Part shown: positions 27,243-39,300 of the stretch, piece after piece | How the letters are laid out: each line of letters opens with the position of its first letter | Position numbering within the stretch: position 1 is the stretch's first letter | Source of the DNA: Escherichia coli | GTDB taxonomy: Bacteria; Pseudomonadota; Gammaproteobacteria; Enterobacterales; Enterobacteriaceae | NCBI RefSeq assembly: GCF_022846255.1 | Contig: NZ_AP025682.1 | Direction: 5' to 3' (one strand) | Length of the DNA: 64,000 nucleotides | The notes under the pieces: generated by a model | Seen by the model: the letters and a program-made list of their open reading frames with translations, nothing else | Databases searched by the model: none | Told to the model about the DNA's origin: nothing | Program-made: the position numbers and the translations under genes

Positions 27243-28375
27243 GACTGAAGATTCTCCGCAAGCCATGATGCCAGCTCGCCCGGTGTCATGGCGGCTATTT
27301 GTGCGCCGACATTTACCAGCGCCTGGGCCGTATCGTGGTCATAGCAAGGTGTTGCGCTGCTATCGAGCGCCGCCAGTCCCAGCACTTTGATGCCGCTCTG
27401 GACACACTTTTTCACCTGATGCGTCAGCAATGATGATGACCCACCTTCATAAAAATCGCTCACGAGAATAATGACACTTTTTGCAGGTTGTTCAATAAGT
27501 TGCCGACCATACTCCACGGCACTGGCGATATTGGTCCCGCCGCCCAGTTGTACTTTCATTAATAACTCTACCGGATCGGCAACGTCTGCCGTGAGATCAA
27601 CCACGCTGGTGTCAAAAGCGACCAGATGGGTACGAATGCCGGGTAACTGCCATAAACAGGCCGCCATCACTGCGGAGTGGATCACCGAATCAACCATCGA
27701 TCCGCTTTGATCAACCAGTAGGACCAGTTGCCATTGTTCGCTATGGCGTTTAATGCGGCTGTTAAAGCGGGGGGATTCGATATACAACTTGCCGTGTTGC
27801 GGGTGCCAGTGTTGCAGGTTGGCGCGCAGAGTACTTTTGAAATCAAAGTTTCGCGCCAGTGAAATAAATGAGCGGCGACGGCGATCGCGTACTCCAGAAA
27901 AAGCCTGACGAACTTCCTTTGCCAGTCGCGCCATAATCTCTTCAACAACCTGGTGCACTATCCGGCGGGCGGCAGCCAGTACTTCGGGATTCATCAGATG
28001 TTTGGCGTGCAAAACGGCGCGTAGCAGGCTTTCAGAAGGCTGCATACGTTCCAGCACGTCGAGATTCGTCACCACATCTTCAATGCCGTAGCGCAGCACG
28101 GCATCGCTTTCCAGCCGCTCGATCACCCGTTGCGGAAACAGCGTGTGAATGCTGTTGATCCACTCAGGGGTGGTGAGATTTGAACGACCTAATCCACCGT
28201 AACGTTCACCACGCTGGAGCCGTTCAGGATCGCGCCCATACAGCCACTCCAGCGCGTGGTCTATCTGCCGGGCGTTGTCATCCAGCCCACAAAGCGTCGT
28301 TTCTGCCGCTTCGCCAAGAATTAATCGCCAGCGTTGTAGCTCACGGGTGGTCAGAAGATCGTTCAGTTCAGACAT
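27239..28375 (-). CDS. yehP: von Willebrand factor A (VWA) domain protein YehP (378 aa)
   Basis: ORF track 27239..28603; start at MSELNDLLTTRELQRW; MIDAS DxSxS motif (LVDQSGSM). Confidence 0.88.
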   Translation of the reverse strand: MSELNDLLTTRELQRWRLILGEAAETTLCGLDDNARQIDHALEWLYGRDPERLQRGERYGGLGRSNLTTPEWINSIHTLFPQRVIERLESDAVLRYGIEDVVTNLDVLERMQPSESLLRAVLHAKHLMNPEVLAAARRIVHQVVEEIMARLAKEVRQAFSGVRDRRRRSFISLARNFDFKSTLRANLQHWHPQHGKLYIESPRFNSRIKRHSEQWQLVLLVDQSGSMVDSVIHSAVMAACLWQLPGIRTHLVAFDTSVVDLTADVADPVELLMKVQLGGGTNIASAVEYGRQLIEQPAKSVIILVSDFYEGGSSSLLTHQVKKCVQSGIKVLGLAALDSSATPCYDHDTAQALVNVGAQIAAMTPGELASWLAENLQS

Positions 28376-30646
28376 GGAAAACTCCCCAGTGTTGCAGCGA
28401 TGCCAGTGCCTGCTGTTCGAGTTGTTGATGATGTGCAATGTCTTGTGGTGGACAATGCAACGGCATTTGCAGTGCCGAAACGGGAAGTTGCACCAGTTGA
28501 TAATGCTCAAGCACCTGATGTGCCAGCGTCCCGCGTTCTCGTGGTGGTAGCCAGGCCATCGCCGCGCGTAAATCGGGCAGGGCATTGATAAAATCGGCAT
28601 CACTCAGTTGATTTAAATGACTGCTGAAACCGGCGATAAATACCGGCTGACAGGCCAGTTGATGACGGGCTAATGCCAGCAAACCGTGCAGCGCCTCGCC
28701 GGATTGTGCCGGGGATAACTGCGCCAGCATCGTCAGCGCCGTTTCGGCACTGGCGTTGGGATGTTCCAGACGCATCAGTGCGCCAAGAGTCGCGCCGCGA
28801 TCCAGCGCCGGGGCATGAATCGCCTGACTGCGGCGCTCCAGTAAGGCTACTGCCGCAGAAAGCGAAACGCCGGGTAAATTAACGCCGCTATGTAGATCGC
28901 GCAGGATATGGCAAAGCGCCTGCCAGCTATGCAGGTGAGTGTGAAACTCCTTTTCATCCGGTCTGCCGTTGGATTCACATAGCCAGAGTGTGCGATCGAT
29001 AGCCGCGCATAACGTCGTCTGTAATATCTGCGCGCCTTGCATACCGCTAATTTCATCCAGCCGCCATAAGGCATATAGCACTTCCAGCGCCTGGCCCATT
29101 TCGGCGAATTGATTTTCCTGGGCGATTAATAATGTGAGTTGCTCCAGTAATTGTTGACTGAAGGACGCCAGACCCGCTAACGCCGCCTGGCTAAGACATG
29201 TGGTGATACTGCCGATTCCACCCGCGTCCAGCATATCGGCTTCTAATTTATTGCGTGCGGCTTCCTGGAGTGTGGCACCAAAGCAGGCGGCCTCAATTAA
29301 TGCCGCATGTTGCTAAGCGGGCGGGTTAATTTCCAGCGTTCTTCACCGTTGCCTGCAAGTGTCAGTGTGCTTCCCTGCTGGCGTACAATCCCTGGGATCT
29401 CCAGTATTGCCAGCCGATGTAACACCTGACTTTGCGCTAGTCCATTGGGGGTAAAGCGATTTAAGGTAAGCTCCGCCGGAAGAGAGATTGCGGTACGTTC
29501 CAGTTCGCAGGTGACATCTTTTGGCAGAGGCGGTTGTGGCGTAGAAGGGGCAAGTTTACCGAATCCGTCACCCGCTAATGTGTCTATCAACGTTAGCAGA
29601 ATCGGATCGGTATCGGGATGAATAACGCCGCGATAGCTCCACGGCAACGGCGCATTCAGGGCTTCTTTAATCAGCGATCCTGCTATGGCATCCAGCCAGT
29701 CAGTGCGTAACGGTAGTGTATGACCGCGCAACTGTGCCAGTGCCATCGCATGCAGATGAGCGGCAGCCATATCCGCGGTCGAAGCAGGCAACTTGTGCTG
29801 GCGCAAACGGGTGAGAACCGTTTTTAGCAATTGTTCTCCCGTCTGCTGTAAGCCCCACTGCCAGCACCAGTTTTGCCAGACCGGGGCAGGCATTCCTGAA
29901 AGGTATCCTGCCAGCACATCAAGGCGCTTTTCACTGTAGGGGGTGAGATAACAACCTGTAACGGCATCTGCCAGCGACGGCAATTCTGGCGTGTTAATTA
30001 CCTGCGGACATTCGCGCCACATTTTTGCCAGTGCCGGAGCGTGCCAGCCACCGCAGACAACTAACACGTCGCCATTATTTTGCTGCATCGCCCATGTAAT
30101 CCAGCGGGCCATAAAGGCTTCGCGCTGACGATTGAGAGCATCTCCGGGGGAGTCGCCCCGCAGTTGGGCAAAATAGTGCGCCAGTGCAGAGGGTAATGCA
30201 GTTTGCTGGCTTTCATCTTCGAACAAGTGATCCCACAGGGTGTCGCTGTTATCCATGCGGGTGGCACGCAGCAGCAAGGTCTGGCTTTCCTCTTGCGTAT
30301 CAGGCGAATCGTCCTCTTCTTCACTCTGCGCCCAGCAAGGCAAATCGATGAAGTAAGTTTGTGCCTGAATACGACGAGCGGCTTGTAGCGCCTGCCACTC
30401 CGGCGAAAATTCAGCATATGGCGTCCAGGCACCACGCCCGGGGGCTGCACCGTCCTGATACTGGCAATAACTGTAAATAGCTACCGGAAGCTGGTGGGCT
30501 AAAAACAGTTCGTCTACCCGGTCATTAAAATCAGCCGGGCCTTCAATCAACACGTATCGTGGCCGCTGGCTTTCGATTAACGATTTCACCAGCCGGGCGC
30601 AGGCCGGACTATGATGCCGGATGCCGACAATTAACGGCTCGCTCAT
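28368..30646 (-). pseudogene. yehM: yehM, split into two overlapping reading frames by an apparent 1-nt frameshift near 29300-29312
   Basis: N-terminal frame (ORF track 29297..30814, yehM start MSEPLIVGIRHHSPA at 30646) ends at a stop at 29297-29299; C-terminal frame (ORF track 28368..29234) is open upstream to about 29312. Span is 2279 nt, one short of the 2280 expected for the 759-aa protein. Confidence 0.7.
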
Positions 30647-30656
30647 GCATCTTTCC

Positions 30657-31745
30657 TCACGGCAGGCGGTGGCGGGCTTGATAATAAGCCTGCCAGTGAG
30701 CTTCTTTATGTGTGGCGACTCGCTGTTCGAAGTAACGGCGCAGACGAGCGCGATCTTCTTCGTTATCTTTGACGATGGTTCCGGCAATACAGTCCACCAG
30801 ATCGGCTGGCTCACCTGCGCGATTCGCTAAAAACCAGGCGCGGACGCCCACTGCGTGGGCCACGTTCACGGCTTCAGCGGTGGACATAATTGCCGTCAGG
30901 GTATCCATTGACGTTTTCTTTTCGCCGTTGGCACGCAGATCGCGGAAGGTGCGGACCAGTAACTCCAGTACCGCGTCAGGCACTTTATGCGGAATACCGC
31001 TATGGGCCAGCAAACGCGCCGAAGCACTGGCGACCAGTTCCAGCTCCTGGGCGAAATCCATAATCGGAAAGACGGTTTCAAAATCGAAGCGACGCTTTAG
31101 CGCGGCACTCATCTCATTGACGCCGCGATCGCGTGTATTGGCAGTGGCAATAATATTAAAGCCTTCCCGCGCATAGAGCTGACTGGCTTCACCGGTGAGT
31201 TCCGGCACCGTCATCACCCTGTCAGAAAGCATACCTAACAGACAGTCTTGTACTTCCAGCGGTGTACGCGTTATCTCTTCAAAACGGACGATTTTGCCGT
31301 CGCGCATTCCCTGGTAAAGCGGGGCAGGGACCAGTGCTTCCGTTGACGGACCATGGTTGATAAGCAGGGCGTAGTTCCAGCCGTACTTGATTTGATCTTC
31401 GGTGGTAGATGCGCCGCCCTGGATGGTTAACCCGGCATCGCCGCTAATAGCGGTTGCCAGTAATTCAGACAGGAGAGATTTTGCGGTGCCAGGTTCCCCC
31501 ACCAACATCAAACCGCGCCCGGTGGCAAGAGTGACTAACATACGTTCGACAGCGGAGGGACTAATCACCACTTTACGGCTAATATTTTGCGCGCTATCGC
31601 CAAGGATAAAAGCACGGGCCGCAGGCAAACTTAACTGCCAACCGGGCGGGCAAGGTGCGTGATCATTTTGTTTTAATTTTGCCAGTTCATCGGCGTATAA
31701 CACAGCGGCAGGCGGACGCTGCAGATGATTATTCTGCGGTGACAT
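30657..31745 (-). CDS. yehL: MoxR-type AAA+ ATPase YehL (362 aa)
   Basis: ORF track 30657..31811; start at MSPQNNHLQRPP (31745); Walker A GEPGTAKS; MoxR-like architecture. Confidence 0.88.
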   Translation of the reverse strand: MSPQNNHLQRPPAAVLYADELAKLKQNDHAPCPPGWQLSLPAARAFILGDSAQNISRKVVISPSAVERMLVTLATGRGLMLVGEPGTAKSLLSELLATAISGDAGLTIQGGASTTEDQIKYGWNYALLINHGPSTEALVPAPLYQGMRDGKIVRFEEITRTPLEVQDCLLGMLSDRVMTVPELTGEASQLYAREGFNIIATANTRDRGVNEMSAALKRRFDFETVFPIMDFAQELELVASASARLLAHSGIPHKVPDAVLELLVRTFRDLRANGEKKTSMDTLTAIMSTAEAVNVAHAVGVRAWFLANRAGEPADLVDCIAGTIVKDNEEDRARLRRYFEQRVATHKEAHWQAYYQARHRLP

Positions 31746-31854: not shown

Positions 31855-31939
31855 ATAAAAAAACCTGCTGGTGAGGCAGGTTCTTTTATTTACTATTTTC
31901 AGGCCTAACACCACAGCCTGTGCAACATCGTGTTCCAAC
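31855..31939 (-). ncRNA. Candidate antitoxin small RNA (OrzO-like), about 85 nt
   Basis: Minus-strand sigma70-like promoter (-35 TTGCAA at 31969-31974, 17-nt spacer, -10 TATAAT as complement of 31946-31951); intrinsic terminator (7-bp stem 31862-31868/31876-31882 followed by a U-run on the minus strand); 5' segment complementary to 32086-32105 of the toxin 5' UTR. Confidence 0.5.
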
Positions 31940-31945
31940 GAACGA

Positions 31946-31996
31946 ATTATAACCACGGCTGGACCCCGTTGCAATTAAGATAATGAGATTTATAAT
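31946..31996. promoter_or_regulatory. Divergent back-to-back promoters sharing one palindromic -35 hexamer (TTGCAA)
   Basis: Plus strand: TTGCAA (31969-31974), 16-nt spacer, TATAAT (31991-31996), predicted TSS about 32001-32004. Minus strand: the same TTGCAA read in reverse, 17-nt spacer, TATAAT (complement of 31946-31951). Confidence 0.5.
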
Positions 31997-32177: not shown

Positions 32178-32267
32178 ATGGACACGCTGACACAAAAGTT
32201 AACCGTGCTCATTGCTGTACTGGAGCTATTAGTGGCTCTGTTACGGTTGATTGATTTGTTGAAGTAA
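32178..32267 (+). CDS. zorO: 29-aa hydrophobic type I toxin candidate (ZorO-like / TisB-like)
   Basis: ATG at 32178 preceded by SD TAAGGAGA (32166-32173); product MDTLTQKLTVLIAVLELLVALLRLIDLLK is a single amphipathic/hydrophobic helix with a basic C-terminus; predicted 5' UTR of about 174 nt; own terminator follows. Gene name assigned from memory of the Zor-Orz family, not verified. Confidence 0.6.
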   Translation: MDTLTQKLTVLIAVLELLVALLRLIDLLK

Positions 32268-32290: not shown

Positions 32291-32319
32291 GGGGGAATAC
32301 CGTTTCCCCCTTTAATAAA
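32291..32319 (+). terminator. Intrinsic terminator of the small toxin gene
   Basis: ggggga-ataccgtt-tccccc hairpin followed by tttaataaa. Confidence 0.6.
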
Positions 32320-32507
32320 GCTATACTCGCCATACTTCAAGTTGCATATGCTGCGACTTGAAGTATGATGAGTATATTATTCTATTTCTTGGTTGAATAT
32401 ATTCTGTAGTTCACAATTAAAAATTGCTATTACAGTTTCATGTGATTCACCTCGTAATTTCCGCTCATCAATAAACTCATCTCTTGTATAAATCAACGCA
32501 TCATTTA

Positions 32508-32693
32508 TTAGTGGTCGGCATCTTCTCGATCACGTTGATGAAATGTTGGATGTAGCCGGAATCGTTCCAGTCGATAGACGGAACCTGTAAATAATTCAGA
32601 GAATTTATGGATCTCAAGTCTGAAGGAAAACGGATCTTCAGGAGCAGGAACCTCATAATCGTAAATAGCAACCAGCTCTTTTTGCACGATCAT
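32508..32693 (-). CDS. Hypothetical small protein (61 aa); possibly a remnant or variant of the yehK-position gene
   Basis: ORF track 32508..32693; a 15-codon ATG-initiated frame immediately downstream of the yehI stop runs into it out of frame; no recognisable domain. Confidence 0.3.
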   Translation of the reverse strand: MIVQKELVAIYDYEVPAPEDPFSFRLEIHKFSELFTGSVYRLERFRLHPTFHQRDREDADH

Positions 32694-32753
32694 CGCTTTT
32701 CCCGGTGGTAGGTCGTGTTGATAACGGGCAGTTGCATCACTGCCCGCTGTGTT

Positions 32754-35700
32754 TTAATGGAAAATAACGTCGGGTGCGCTTAACGCTTCACTCAAATCAA
32801 ACACATCAAGTTCGGCAAAAGTGACGGATTTATTGTCACGGTAAACCCGAAGAGAACGGAAGCTCATTAGCGCTTTGCTATCAACATTGTAGTGGTTAAA
32901 GCCGGGTGAAAACTTAAGGACCAGCCGGTACGCACCTAAGTCATAGACAAATGCGTCCTCATAGCCTGACTCCCAGCCTTTGTATCGCATTCCCATAAGT
33001 TGACCAACGGTAGCGGATTTACCTTCCCAGCGAGTCAGGCTGTTACTGGCTGACTCGTCAGGTGTGAGCAGCACCGTGCGCCGCGCCAACTGGCGAAAAG
33101 GCGGCATAATTTCGTAATCGGCAAAAAGCTGTGCAAATTCACTGCGCATTTCTGCTGCCATTTCTAACGGGTGGGCAATGCCAATCAGAGCATCTGCAGG
33201 CAGGTCAATGGACTCATCTTGTGCATTGCAGAACTCCCCCTCTGCGGCCACACGAAAGGCGTTGAGTAAACGACGCGGTTCATTTGCCGGATAAACCCCC
33301 CATATTAATCGCTGGGTAACCAGGCGGGTAAAGGGATGATTAACAAACAGAGAATGAAAATCTGCCAGCGACCAGCGTCGGGTGGTGCGCAGGGCAGTTT
33401 CAAGACGCGGGAGCAGGTTTTTGCTCACCTGAGAGGCATCTTTTTTTAGCCCTTTTAGTCGGGCCAGTGCCTCGGGGGCTTTCAGTTGATCGTCATCGGC
33501 GCGCAACCGGGGAACGCTTTTCTGGCGAACGTTTTGTTGATCGTAGATAACCGGGTTGAGGTTTTCATCGAAGCGAACGGTAAATTGCCGTGGACCAAAA
33601 TCAAAAATCAACGCCTGCGGATCATCAAGACCCAGTGTTGGGACTAATCTGTCCGCTAACTCTTCCTGGCTTAGCCCGCGATTTTCTGCGACCACCTGAA
33701 GAAATTCCGCCGCGTTATCACGTAAGGAGCGGGATTTCGCCCGTTGGGATATATGGTGCAGCTGTATCAGCGCCATATCATTATTCATCAGGGTAAGGAT
33801 GTTCAGGCCACTGACAGCACGGGCAGATTTGCCTTCTTGTGGCCAGGCGAGGATCTGTGTCGTCAGATCCCGAGCCGTGCTTTCGTCACCAAAGAGACTT
33901 AACGCCAGAAATGCCCAGTTGTCTTTTGCGGGGGCTCCAGCTTGTTGCCATGCGGTGAAAAGATCCCAGGCAAAAGCTGCCAGCGTTTGCGGCTGGCAAA
34001 ACGTTTTCAGCTGTTCCAGTCCGCCATAAAAACGTCCGCCCTGGGTAAAGCGCAGCATTTCGCCGATAATTTCCAGAGCGTCATCGGTAACAGGCTGATT
34101 ATTCTTGATAAGGCGCGGCCTGGACCACATTGCCGGATGCCAGAAATCAGGAGCTTTTGGAATACGTGCCGGGTAAATTTCTATTGGACCCAGTTTAAGT
34201 AATTGCTCCAGGGCAGGCCATACATCTGTACGCTGCCAGCGGTTTGCCACGGTTTGCAGTAATTCGCCATGCCCTTGTTCATACAGTAAACGCAGGGCAA
34301 GTAATGCAGCTTCGCTATTATCGCTGGGTTTTGTAAAGACAAGAGGGATAAGTGCAGTAGCCGTATGTTCCGGCCATTGTAAAATCCACTGGCGAGCCAG
34401 ATCACGCTGCGCCGCGAAACGTCGCCAGACGCGGGCAACGGGCAGGGCCAGTTCTGTTGCGCCGAAATTTAAAATTAACGGAAATGTTTCTTTTGGATGA
34501 TGTGAAAAAGCCAATAACAGGCCAGGTAATGTATCCAACCCGAGGATACTGAGAAAATAGTCCTCACCCGCGAACAGATGCTTTTTCTCATTGATACGCA
34601 GCCAGAAAGTCAAAGCCATCTCACGCGGCAACTGTGCCAATAAATACAGGTTCCAGACACTCTTTTCCGGACGATAACGTGAGTAGCTATCATTTTCCCA
34701 GGTGTTAATTAACGCTTCAACGTCGCCGGAACGAAGCGCCTGTTCGGCTGATTTTGCTTCCGTGGAGTGCCAGCCATTGTTGATTTCCTCTACTCTGCGC
34801 GGGGAGTAATGCCACTGACCCACTAATGATTTGCGCGCCGCATCCAGTTTGCCGGGCAGTATATAATTCCGGAACAGCCATACATCATCCCCAAAACCTA
34901 GCTCCTGTAGTACAACTCGACCACTTTTTCGTTCCATGCGTTCCGTAAAAGATCCCGTGCTGAAATAACGGGCAGACTCTGTGGCGGCAAGTCTCTCTCG
35001 TTCGCCTGGTTGCCAGCGGGCTTTGGGCGCTAATTCAAGAGGCACTAAATCAAGGCGCAGCAATGCCGTTTTTTTCTTACCTCGCCACGGTGGAGAAACA
35101 AGTATTTCTGGCAGGTCGTTGCTATGAGTACTCTCGAAAGCAAGTTTTGGCGATGCCGATAAATAACCATTCACCACTGCCTGGGCTTGTGTACTTAAGC
35201 ACGGCATCACCTCTTCTGCCAGTTGTGGCTGCGATGCCATCAGCGTTTGTAACAGCGTATGCCAGTATTCATCACGTGCTTTTTGCTGTGCAGGCAGCTT
35301 TTTGTCTTCGATGATGGGATAACCAGGGCGCGCAGGGGGGGCTTTTAACGCCAGCAGTTCTGCCAGTGCGGCGAGCGTCGCATGGGGGAAGTTTTTACTG
35401 TATTTAGCCACACGTTGCAGGCTGGGTTTGTTTTTATCAGCCACCAGTAGCAAGGTGCGGATGACTTGCGGATGGTTAATTTGTACCAGCAGACTGCCGC
35501 AATCTTCTTTATGTGCATACATCGAGAGGCGCGGAACGGCTGCCAGTCCTTGTTCGCGCAAAAGGGCAGCGCAGGCCGCGTAGCCGAAGTGGTTTTCATG
35601 CGACATGTAGCTGGCTTCTCGATCGCTAAATATATCCTGGCTCCAGTAACGTGCGAGTTCTTTCACCGCCTTAGGGTCATCAGCAACAACTTTTAACCAC

Positions 35701-36386
35701 TCTTTTGAGCGAAAATGAGTTTGCGAACATTCAAGGCTTACCAGCTCGTTGGCGATTTCGGGTTTTTCCGGGAGGTTCAGAGCAATAAAAGGGCGGCGAA
35801 CTTTGGTTATTCCTGGCAGTGCGGCAATGAGTTTGTCGGCGCAACGCTGCCAGCAGGTTTCCTCTGCCAGAGAGAGATGCTTACGTAATCGGAGATCGAA
35901 TTCGTTATAGGTTTCTGAGCGATAACCATAGCCATAGTCCTCGTTCTGATACTGCAATGTTACTACCAGAGGATCACTCTCATAACACCGTACAATAAAC
36001 TGGCGTGCAATCACCACCTCAGTTGCATATTCCAGCCCCTCTTGTTGGACGATTTCGTCGAGCAACTGTTGGCTATCATTTTGCGCGATACAGGCTAGCG
36101 CCGCCATTGTCCGGGCCGTGATTGAGGGTTTGTGTTCGCCGATCAAGTTGATGGCCTGCGTGATGGCGGACTGCCACTCCAGTGAAAAGTTTTCATAACG
36201 CCAGACAATGTTTTTTTTCTTCTCTGCTTTTTGTAGCAATTCATCACCCAGTGTCTGAATGATGCTTTCAGTGATAACAGGCACCGGTTCGCCTGGCCAA
36301 TTGCGATGGCTGAGTGGTGTTTTGCCTTTTTTATATTTAAGTTCCAGTTGGGCGTTATCCGCCAGCCACGGTAATTCCTTGTCCAT
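32754..36386 (-). CDS. yehI: Large uncharacterised protein YehI (1210 aa), paralog of MolR
   Basis: ORF track 32754..36386; shares multiple sequence blocks with the adjacent MolR ORF (for example FxLRLRKHLSLAEE and LPEKPEIA). Confidence 0.85.
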   Translation of the reverse strand: MDKELPWLADNAQLELKYKKGKTPLSHRNWPGEPVPVITESIIQTLGDELLQKAEKKKNIVWRYENFSLEWQSAITQAINLIGEHKPSITARTMAALACIAQNDSQQLLDEIVQQEGLEYATEVVIARQFIVRCYESDPLVVTLQYQNEDYGYGYRSETYNEFDLRLRKHLSLAEETCWQRCADKLIAALPGITKVRRPFIALNLPEKPEIANELVSLECSQTHFRSKEWLKVVADDPKAVKELARYWSQDIFSDREASYMSHENHFGYAACAALLREQGLAAVPRLSMYAHKEDCGSLLVQINHPQVIRTLLLVADKNKPSLQRVAKYSKNFPHATLAALAELLALKAPPARPGYPIIEDKKLPAQQKARDEYWHTLLQTLMASQPQLAEEVMPCLSTQAQAVVNGYLSASPKLAFESTHSNDLPEILVSPPWRGKKKTALLRLDLVPLELAPKARWQPGERERLAATESARYFSTGSFTERMERKSGRVVLQELGFGDDVWLFRNYILPGKLDAARKSLVGQWHYSPRRVEEINNGWHSTEAKSAEQALRSGDVEALINTWENDSYSRYRPEKSVWNLYLLAQLPREMALTFWLRINEKKHLFAGEDYFLSILGLDTLPGLLLAFSHHPKETFPLILNFGATELALPVARVWRRFAAQRDLARQWILQWPEHTATALIPLVFTKPSDNSEAALLALRLLYEQGHGELLQTVANRWQRTDVWPALEQLLKLGPIEIYPARIPKAPDFWHPAMWSRPRLIKNNQPVTDDALEIIGEMLRFTQGGRFYGGLEQLKTFCQPQTLAAFAWDLFTAWQQAGAPAKDNWAFLALSLFGDESTARDLTTQILAWPQEGKSARAVSGLNILTLMNNDMALIQLHHISQRAKSRSLRDNAAEFLQVVAENRGLSQEELADRLVPTLGLDDPQALIFDFGPRQFTVRFDENLNPVIYDQQNVRQKSVPRLRADDDQLKAPEALARLKGLKKDASQVSKNLLPRLETALRTTRRWSLADFHSLFVNHPFTRLVTQRLIWGVYPANEPRRLLNAFRVAAEGEFCNAQDESIDLPADALIGIAHPLEMAAEMRSEFAQLFADYEIMPPFRQLARRTVLLTPDESASNSLTRWEGKSATVGQLMGMRYKGWESGYEDAFVYDLGAYRLVLKFSPGFNHYNVDSKALMSFRSLRVYRDNKSVTFAELDVFDLSEALSAPDVIFH

Positions 36387-36395
36387 GCTCTTTCC

Positions 36396-39300
36396 TTATT
36401 CAAACAGGGCTTCAATATCGTTAATTAGCTCGCTGGCGGTGATGGCATCGAGTACGGAGAACTGCGCTTCCTGTGTTGAATTACTCCCCCAGCCATAGCT
36501 TTCCGCTTTGCCTTCCCATAGCCACAGCTTGCTTAAGAGTTGCTCGGCACTCAGTTCGGCTGGCGACATGCCTACCGCAAAACCTTCATCGATTTCCATG
36601 ATTAACGACCAGCGGCCCAGGGGGTTGATCATCCAGCCGATCCAGCCAGCATCCTGCGGGGTGCCCTTTATCCAGCCTTTATTCGCCAGCCCCATTATCC
36701 GACCACTCGGGCATTTTCTGCCTGTCCAGCGTGTCAGTTCGCTGGCGTTGCGCTCGGCTTCTGTCAGCGCGTAACTGTTACGATCAAGCTGGCGGAACGG
36801 TGGTAACAGTTCGTAGTCGGCAAAAAGCTGCCCGAAGGCGGCAGCATCCGTCGGTGATATTTCCAGAACGTGAGGAATACCAATAGAGATATCGCCTTCC
36901 GGCAGGGTGAAAAGATCATCGTCAGCGGTGCTGTAGCTGTTATCTTCCGCTACGCGAAAGCAAGCCAGTAGCTGGTTTTCGGCGCTATAAACGCCCCAAA
37001 TCAGACGGCGGGTTAAGTGGCGGACCAGCGGATGCTCAACCAGGAAGAGCTGAAAGTTTTCCGGTGACCAGCGGCGACGCAGGCACATGGCGGATTCCAG
37101 CCTTGCTACCTGCTGGGCGGCGACGGTACGCGCATCTTTTTTCAGCAATTTGTAGCGGTTAACAGCATCGTTCGCCTGTGATTCATCATCGCTTTTGTTT
37201 GGTTTGGGCAGGTCTTTCAGACGACTGCCGGAAGCGTCACGCACAAACGGTTTTAAGGTTTCATCAAAGCTGACGGTGAACTGGCGTGGGCCGAAATCCA
37301 GCAACAACGAACCATTATCATCCAGACCGAGATCCGGTGCTAACCGATCTTCAAGCTCCGCCACCGTGAGTTCGCGGCTCTCGGCAATGTCGGCAATTTT
37401 TTCTTTTGCCCGCTCCTGTAATGCTTTGAATTTCAGTTTCTGGGCGATGCCGTTAAGCTGCATCAGGGCGATATCACTACCGATAGCAGCGAGAATATCC
37501 AACCCGACGGTGGCGCGTTTATGCTGGGATTCACCAGGCCAGGCGCGAATCAAAGGCGTCAGTTTGCGGGCGGTGTCATCGTTACCGAGAACGCCTAACG
37601 CAGTGAACGCCCAACTCTCTTTCGACGGCGCGCCAGCGGTCTGCCAGGCGGTAAACAGATCCCAGGCAAATTCAGCCAGTGAGTCGGCGGTACAGGCATC
37701 TTTCACCTGCAATAATCCCGGATACAGCGCCTCCTCCTGATGGAAGCGGAGCATTTCACCGAGGTGCTGGAGTGCGCTATCGGGCAGTGATTGGGCGTTT
37801 GCTTTTAATACCGGGCGGTTCCAGAGCGATGGCTGATAAAAGGCCGGAAGAGTGGGGATTTTTGTCGGGTGATTATCTAAGGGATCGAGCGCAAGCAGAG
37901 CGTTCACCGCGTCTGTTACTTCCGGCTGGTTATAACGCCGGGCGATTTCTTGCAGTAATGGCTGATGACCGTTTTCGGTAAGCATACGCAAGGCAGCGCG
38001 GGCGTTATCCTGGGCTTCACCGGCTTTGCCGAGCGCCGCAGGCAGCAGGCCGGTAATGGCGTGTTCCGGGTATTTCAGCAGCCAGATACGGGCATCTTGT
38101 CGTAGGGTTTTGAGTTTGTTGAAGGCGCGGGCGACGGCAGGTGCCAGCTCACTCGCTGCGAAGTAATTCGTTATGGGCAAGGCTTCCTGTGGATAGCGTG
38201 CAAGTGAGTTTACTAACCCAGGTAATCCTTTGAGTCCAAAATGTAACATGGCGTATTCGGTATCGGTATGCGGAGATAGAGTAAGGGCATTCCATGCTCT
38301 TACTGCTTTCTCCAGCGGCAATGTTGTCAAAATCCCCAAATGCCAATAATGCCCGGTAGGTGAATGAAACACCTTAAATTCACTTATTAAAGTTGAATAA
38401 TCTTCATTTAGCCATGCCTCAACTACCGCTTCGGGAGCTTTAATATATGTACCAGCGATCCGTCGTTGAAAACCCATCCTTGCCAACAGATTGGCAGTAC
38501 TTTCTTCATGACTAACCGTGATGTGTTTTGAATACCAGATATATTTCGCCAAAAGTTGATTACTGATTTCTTCTGTCAGATAACTGATTGGCTCAATACC
38601 TAATGGTGCTAAATCAAGCACTGGAATCGGCGATTTTTTCTTTTTCGAAAGCCATGGTGGGGAGACTACTATGACCGGCAGTAGATCGGCGCTGGCATGG
38701 TTTGAGGGCTGTGTCAGTTGTTGCTGGCATGATTTCAGCACTGCAACTGCGGGTGTCGAAAGCCAGGGAATGACCTGTTCTGCTAGTGTCGGTTGCGAGA
38801 TAAGCATCGTCATTAGCATAATGCGCCAACTATTCTCTTCTTTTTGCACTAGAAGTTCCGCCAGTGCTGCCAGTGCTGCGTGTGGGAACGCAGCGCAGGC
38901 TTTCGTCATTCGATCGTGACAGCGTTTAGTATGCCCGGCTACACGTATAAGCAGTGTTAATGCGAATGGATGATTGATATGACGCAACACATCGGCGCAG
39001 TAGTCACTTGCGACATAGGGAGCAAATCGGGGCAGGGCCGCAACACCTTGCTCCTGTAATACGGTGGCTGACCATATCGCACCACAATAGTAATCATCAA
39101 AAATGGCATATGGCTCGTGATATTTTTCTAATGAGGCAAGAATGTGCTCATCAGTCGCCACTATTTTTAGCCACTCAAGCGAGGGTAATTTCTTTTGCCC
39201 CAGTAGACGCTGGGCAATTTCATGTGCAATTTCTGGTTTTTCGGGTAATAACAAAGCAATTAATGGTTGCCGCCATTCTGGAATATGTGGAACTGCGGCA

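Follow-up and report, generated by a model that had tools for sequence, protein, structure and literature searches.

What stands between yehI and yehL in this strain of Escherichia coli, a new small gene or a broken old one? K-12 has yehK (b4541) there, which encodes the uncharacterised protein YehK of 105 aa. In this study, we analysed a 64,000-nucleotide stretch of E. coli DNA (NCBI RefSeq assembly GCF_022846255.1, contig NZ_AP025682.1), referred to below as the window. A 61-aa ORF was found at the position of K-12 yehK, with the same spacer and the same start context. The preliminary description had reported this ORF and a 15-codon ORF before it, and the ORF listing and the translations agree with it; its statement that K-12 has a yehK of about 105 aa between yehI and yehL was also correct. 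It suggested that the strain may carry a frameshifted or remodelled yehK. The features of the interval are given below.

32377..32693, minus strand: the entire yehK pseudogene, 317 nt against 318 nt in K-12, located by blastn and tblastn against K-12 yehK.
32508..32693, minus strand: the 61-aa ORF (MIVQKELVAIYDYEVPAPEDPFSFRLEIHKFSELFTGSVYRLERFRLHPTFHQRDREDADH), with an ATG start, consisting of yehK codons 1-60 and one out-of-frame His codon, then TAA TAA.
32512..32514, minus strand: the frameshift site, from DNA alignments and from two tblastn segments that join at 32514.
32377..32511, minus strand: the stranded 3' part of yehK, 44 codons (LINDALIYTRDEF...NQEIE) and the stop, open in the -1 frame.
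32754..36386, minus strand: yehI, intact, encoding a DUF4132 protein of 1210 aa, with its stop at 32754-32756.
30657..31745, minus strand: yehL, intact, the next gene of the operon, encoding a MoxR-type AAA+ ATPase.

A tblastn search of the 64-kb window with K-12 YehK gave two adjoining matches and no second copy of yehK. Residues 1-60 corresponded to 32693..32514 with 95% identity, and residues 61-105 corresponded to 32514..32380 with 91% identity in the neighbouring frame. The similarity to K-12 YehK covers the whole length (residues 1-105) in two frames, and the locus sits in the yehI/yehL interval on the same strand, as in an orthologue. A chance origin of the 61-aa ORF was rejected by its match to YehK 1-60 and by the adjoining frame. 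yehK runs from its ATG at 32693 to its original stop codon at 32377-32379, about 130 nt past the 32508-32693 span in the preliminary description.

DNA alignment of K-12, EDL933, and CFT073 with the window located the lesion. K-12 and EDL933 read GAT GCT GAC CCG CTA ATA, whereas the window reads GAT GCC GAC CAC TAA TAA; the CCC run has lost one C, and the adjacent G is replaced by A. The window therefore differs from K-12 yehK by a 1-bp deletion at codon 60/61, and the frame ends after 61 codons. Because the uninterrupted frame of about 100-106 codons found in yehK orthologues is interrupted here, the locus is a pseudogene of the yehK family, without functional membership. The frameshift suspected earlier was confirmed by the length, the deletion, and the two-frame match. 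The alignments with the K-12 gene and the O157:H7 (EDL933) interval identified the 61-aa ORF as yehK, and an intact yehK elsewhere in the window was not found.

We propose that the inherited deletion at codon 60/61 has very probably inactivated yehK (32377-32693, minus strand). Translation from the normal ATG would produce 60 native codons and one wrong codon (His) before stopping at TAA TAA. The final 44 codons (LINDALIYTRDEFIDERKLRGESHETVIAIFNCELQNIFNQEIE) are probably untranslated and would not have decayed so far.

The preliminary description had implied that the lesion separates the 15-codon frame from the 61-aa ORF, in a spacer with the following features.

32690..32737, minus strand: the 15-codon ORF (MQLPVINTTYHREKR) in the yehI-yehK spacer, identified by translation.
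32725..32746, minus strand: a hairpin that immediately follows the yehI stop; 8 perfect pairs form its stem (CGGGCAGU / ACUGCCCG), and its loop has 6 nt.

The spacer is 60 nt long. The ATG of the 15-codon ORF (32737) is located 16 nt past the yehI stop, and its stop codon (TGA) and the start codon of yehK overlap in the sequence ATGA. Both the short ORF and the ATGA overlap were also present in K-12 (MQLPVINTTYQRGKR) and E. fergusonii, in each case beside an intact yehK. The frame is in fact broken where the 61-aa ORF ends on its 3' side, and the position implied earlier is not supported. The start of the short ORF was absent in E. albertii (ATA) and E. marmotae (ACA), and both species had indels within it. 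Judged from these alignments, the 15-codon ORF is a chance ORF that lies outside yehK and is unconnected with the lesion.

RNA folding lengthened the hairpin stem to 10 pairs, and the fold of the 76-nt spacer had an energy of -22.7 kcal/mol (z = -3.0). The ATG of the 15-codon ORF is located in the hairpin loop. Every Escherichia species in the alignment (E. coli, E. fergusonii, E. albertii, and E. marmotae) retained the stem, with one G-U pair in E. marmotae. No T-run was found at the hairpin on the yeh strand. The hairpin may serve in processing or stabilising the transcript between the two cistrons.

The ancestral state of yehK was examined using its orthologues. Those of K-12, EDL933, E. 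fergusonii, E. albertii, and E. marmotae were all in one frame, and the last three species encoded full-length proteins of 101-106 aa. The dN/dS of intact yehK orthologues (Nei-Gojobori) was 0.10-0.25 between species. This was comparable with yehI (0.13-0.28), and yehL was under stronger constraint (0.02-0.05). The dN/dS values and the full-length orthologues indicate that yehK truly codes for a protein, that purifying selection on it is moderate, and that the one-frame state is ancestral.

In the frameshifted alleles aligned, no further stops or indels were found in the stranded 3' segment of 44 codons, and I70T was the only substitution in it specific to the two alleles. This segment thus shows no positive sign of decay; with such a small number of changes the comparison has little power in either direction, and continued use of the 3' part is conceivable. 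Other alleles of the gene were also observed (L008 and L011, alleles P0023 and P0015; protein P0059). In some intact E. coli alleles, 15 nt are deleted in frame from the linker of YehK (residues 52-56). One of them, the 100-aa allele P0023, shares F31, H85, and C94 with the window allele and was considered as a frame-restoring revertant. This was rejected, as P0023 has an independent in-frame 15-nt deletion and a full-length GAC TCG CTA at the site. A K-12-like allele carries a separate frameshift after codon 37, and its product is also 61 aa; this second frameshift shows that yehK has been disrupted more than once.

The effect of the truncation was assessed from the protein family and a predicted fold. 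No family or fold match to YehK was found in Pfam, NCBIfam, PADLOC, or a PDB sequence-profile search. An exhaustive HMM search found 58 representative relatives at E <= 0.001, many of them full-length (100-120 aa) with 25-48% identity to K-12 YehK. The relatives have the motifs FRLE, YRxExYRLxPTFPQ, DDALIYVxD, and GxSxxEV in common. The model that AlphaFold2 built from just the 13 Escherichia sequences could not be used (pLDDT 48), and a confident one (pLDDT 89.5, pTM 0.78) was obtained only with a 34-sequence alignment. In this model, strands were predicted at residues 6-15, 22-31, 34-47, and 64-71 and a helix at residues 85-100, forming one compact domain in which a four-stranded β-sheet packs on the C-terminal helix and strand 4 pairs into the sheet. 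According to the model and the alignment, the break after residue 60 cuts off strand 4, the helix, and the motifs DDALIYVxD and GxSxxEV. Since these elements are removed, the truncated YehK is likely to lose its function.

The relatives belong to a wider unnamed family (proteins P0075-P0119, loci L015-L018). One of them (P0080) has two tandem copies of the YehK domain, and a protein of 2,094 aa (P0077) has 28 matched stretches. On short contigs, the neighbours of the distant relatives were small unknown genes (DUF4265, DUF4288), not DUF4132/MoxR genes, and these neighbourhoods resemble arrays of small immunity-type genes. No consistent partner gene was found on these short contigs.

Could the locus be a remodelled gene in which the 61-aa N-terminal fragment, or a separately started C-terminal fragment, keeps a function? 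The candidate for the latter is a 39-aa ORF with a TTG start at 32377-32496. The break comes where the segment that varies most within the family (residues 50-62) ends, and this segment tolerates a 5-aa deletion in intact alleles. However, the compact domain predicted by AlphaFold2 has strand 4 paired into the sheet and the helix packed on it, no Shine-Dalgarno-like sequence was seen by eye before the TTG, and no full-length relative among those listed ends near residue 60. We consider retained function in either fragment very unlikely, and inactivation of yehK by the deletion is the preferred reading.

We also considered whether transcriptional slippage or programmed -1 ribosomal frameshifting still yields full YehK. 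In favour of this, no stop closes the downstream frame, and the age of the allele has sufficed for its fixation in a large clade. Such recoding would require a -1 shift, however, and no X XXY YYZ heptamer was found in frame anywhere in yehK. The site (GCC GAC CAC TAA) has neither a homopolymer nor an A/T run, and the related intact alleles point to a simple deletion. The frameshift arrangement, which in programmed -1 shifting is conserved across orthologues, was not found across those of yehK. Production of full YehK by recoding is therefore highly improbable. A phase-variable (contingency) gene was a poor fit as well, as the deletion shortened a run of only three bases, CCC, to CC, and no long homopolymer or repeat is present.

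The distribution of the frameshifted allele was determined in 5,426 complete E. coli genomes. An exact 33-mer over the lesion, which matches solely when the deletion and both flanking variants are present, was found in 909 of them, including CFT073, UTI89, F11, Nissle 1917, and an O25b:H4-ST131 strain. The K-12-type in-frame 34-mer was found in 3,327 genomes. About 1,000 genomes had neither exact k-mer and carry other alleles, some of them intact variants of 101 or 106 aa. The listed carriers of the frameshift are known B2-type strains with the same flanking variants, a pattern that also fits a contingency locus poorly. A 421-bp yehK segment of the window was 100% identical only to E. coli O150:H6 FEX669 and 97.2% identical, with equal length, to CFT073, Nissle 1917, and ATCC 25922. 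RefSeq PGAP labels the 317-nt locus 'yehK, protein YehK, frameshifted' in FEX669, CFT073, DETEC-P881, SCU-115, and Rb-23, that is, in all five carriers whose annotation was read. A literature search found no paper treating a yehK frameshift, and most 'yehK' matches were apparently author names.

The CFT073 pseudogene (C_RS12550) was compared with the window in particular. It is also 317 nt long and has the same deletion, its sequence from the lesion to the stop is identical, and a single-copy zor-orz module is located downstream in both. All nine substitutions between the two alleles fall within the first ~135 nt of the gene, a pattern that suggests a recombinant mosaic. The allele fixed in the CFT073 / UTI89 / Nissle 1917 / ST131 group and that of the window are very probably identical by descent.

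A missing base may also be a sequencing or assembly error in a truly intact yehK. Single-base indels are the usual assembly error, and the window has another 1-bp deletion, in yehM, that occurs in no other genome. However, 909 complete genomes, each sequenced independently, have the yehK deletion together with its flanking substitutions, and the site lies outside any homopolymer of at least 5 bases. An error at this site is extremely improbable: the same deletion in 909 genomes excludes a sequencing error and shows that the allele is inherited and widespread. These results show that the yehK frameshift is real, inherited, widespread, and already recorded in RefSeq, an ordinary known pseudogene.

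The other deletion affects the following gene.

28368-30646, minus strand: yehM (DUF5682, 759 aa in K-12), with a 1-bp deletion that breaks it near 29312.

At this lesion, K-12 has TTAGCCAGC and the window has TTAG-CAAC, and the deletion splits yehM into ORFs 29297..30814 and 28368..29234. Since a 34-mer over the deletion was found in none of the 5,426 genomes, it is either private to the strain or an assembly error. Upstream of yehI, yehH (36396-39254, minus strand) is a pseudogene in K-12, and K-12 and the window differ by one base in length. The window yehH corresponds to an intact 1262-aa DUF4132 protein in FEX669, and the broken copy is that of K-12. The segment 27000-37000 of the window had no match of at least 99% in the 5,426 genomes; the best match was 98.3%, and CFT073/Nissle-type strains matched at 97.9%. 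In FEX669, the 17 kb surrounding the identical yehK segment were 98.4% identical. Compared with K-12, dS was 0.22 for yehI and 0.16 for yehL. The yeh region of the window looks mosaic and unusually diverse in these comparisons. No PADLOC matches were found for YehI, L, M, P, and Q.

The preliminary description had also suggested a possible link of the disruption of yehK to insertion of the toxin-sRNA module next to it, which has the following features.

32178..32267, plus strand: zorO, a type I toxin gene of 29 aa, an ORF convergent with yehK.
31857..31932, minus strand: the OrzO antitoxin sRNA gene, matched by Rfam RF02083 with 99.9 bits against a gathering score of 60.
31946-31996: divergent promoter-like sites.

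The zorO-orzO type I toxin-antitoxin locus is known from E. coli O157:H7 (Fozo 2010; Wen 2014). As in that locus, the window has a 29-aa hydrophobic ORF and a divergently transcribed OrzO sRNA upstream of it. The ZorO peptide of the window is identical to published ZorO (PMC6669753), and OrzO scores 99.9 bits in Rfam. The window differs from O157:H7 in that it has one copy, compared to two in EDL933.

Although the module abuts the yehK stop and the divergence from K-12 begins about 10 nt past it, there is virtually no chance that the frameshift is a by-product of zorO-orzO insertion, as the module starts about 10 nt after the stop and about 135 nt from the lesion, yehK is intact both in EDL933, beside two copies of zor-orz, and in E. 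albertii, beside a 29-aa gene at the same place, P0023, the closest intact relative of the window allele, has the same downstream junction, the complete module is present in 3,393 genomes compared to 909 with the frameshift, K-12 retains OrzO, and Fozo et al. can be cited against it. The proposed link is refuted by this co-occurrence of module and intact gene. The O157:H7-type module adjoins yehK and is no part of the lesion, which in the mechanism proposed here would be independent of both zorO-orzO and the 15-codon spacer ORF. As a whole, the preliminary description was confirmed in what it observed and partly supported in how it interpreted this.

In K-12 MG1655, the yehK-yehL spacer (L003 8410-8485) holds an OrzO-P sRNA gene (99.9 bits) without zorO, and this antitoxin gene is thus an orphan. 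Partial matches to the module, mostly over about 41%, the OrzO-containing end, were found in about 1,840 complete genomes. Because K-12 has retained OrzO and these partial matches exist, the short K-12 interval looks like loss of zorO rather than a module never gained. Between the zorO and yehK stops (32291-32376), an inverted repeat (AAGGGGGAA-TACCG-TTTCCCCCTT) and a second one with a 12-bp stem (CATACTTCAAGT...ACTTGAAGTATG) were observed. Both were present in EDL933 and CFT073 and absent from K-12, and they are probably the terminators of the convergent zorO and yehK transcripts.

For annotation, the appropriate label of the 61-aa ORF is the 5' portion of the yehK pseudogene 32377-32693, not a new small gene, and no gene call is warranted for the 15-codon ORF. 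The lesion itself matters little, being a lineage-wide frameshift pseudogene of a small uncharacterised gene that RefSeq has flagged. The frameshift can be used as a lineage marker of the CFT073/Nissle-type yeh allele. It is conceivable, though we hold it to be very doubtful, that YehK loss in this lineage was adaptive rather than neutral, with YehK as a small partner (e.g., an inhibitor or immunity-like subunit) of the YehI/L/M/P/Q DUF4132-MoxR-VWA-SWIM cluster and a member of a wider uncharacterised family found elsewhere in small-gene arrays. If this were true, extra-intestinal pathogenic E. coli would have a yeh cluster whose activity is altered by the removal of YehK. No Pfam family exists for YehK. 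Its distant relatives occur outside Escherichia, and an α+β fold is predicted for it with confidence. These relatives and this fold are a starting point for the study of the unexplained yeh MoxR-VWA cluster.
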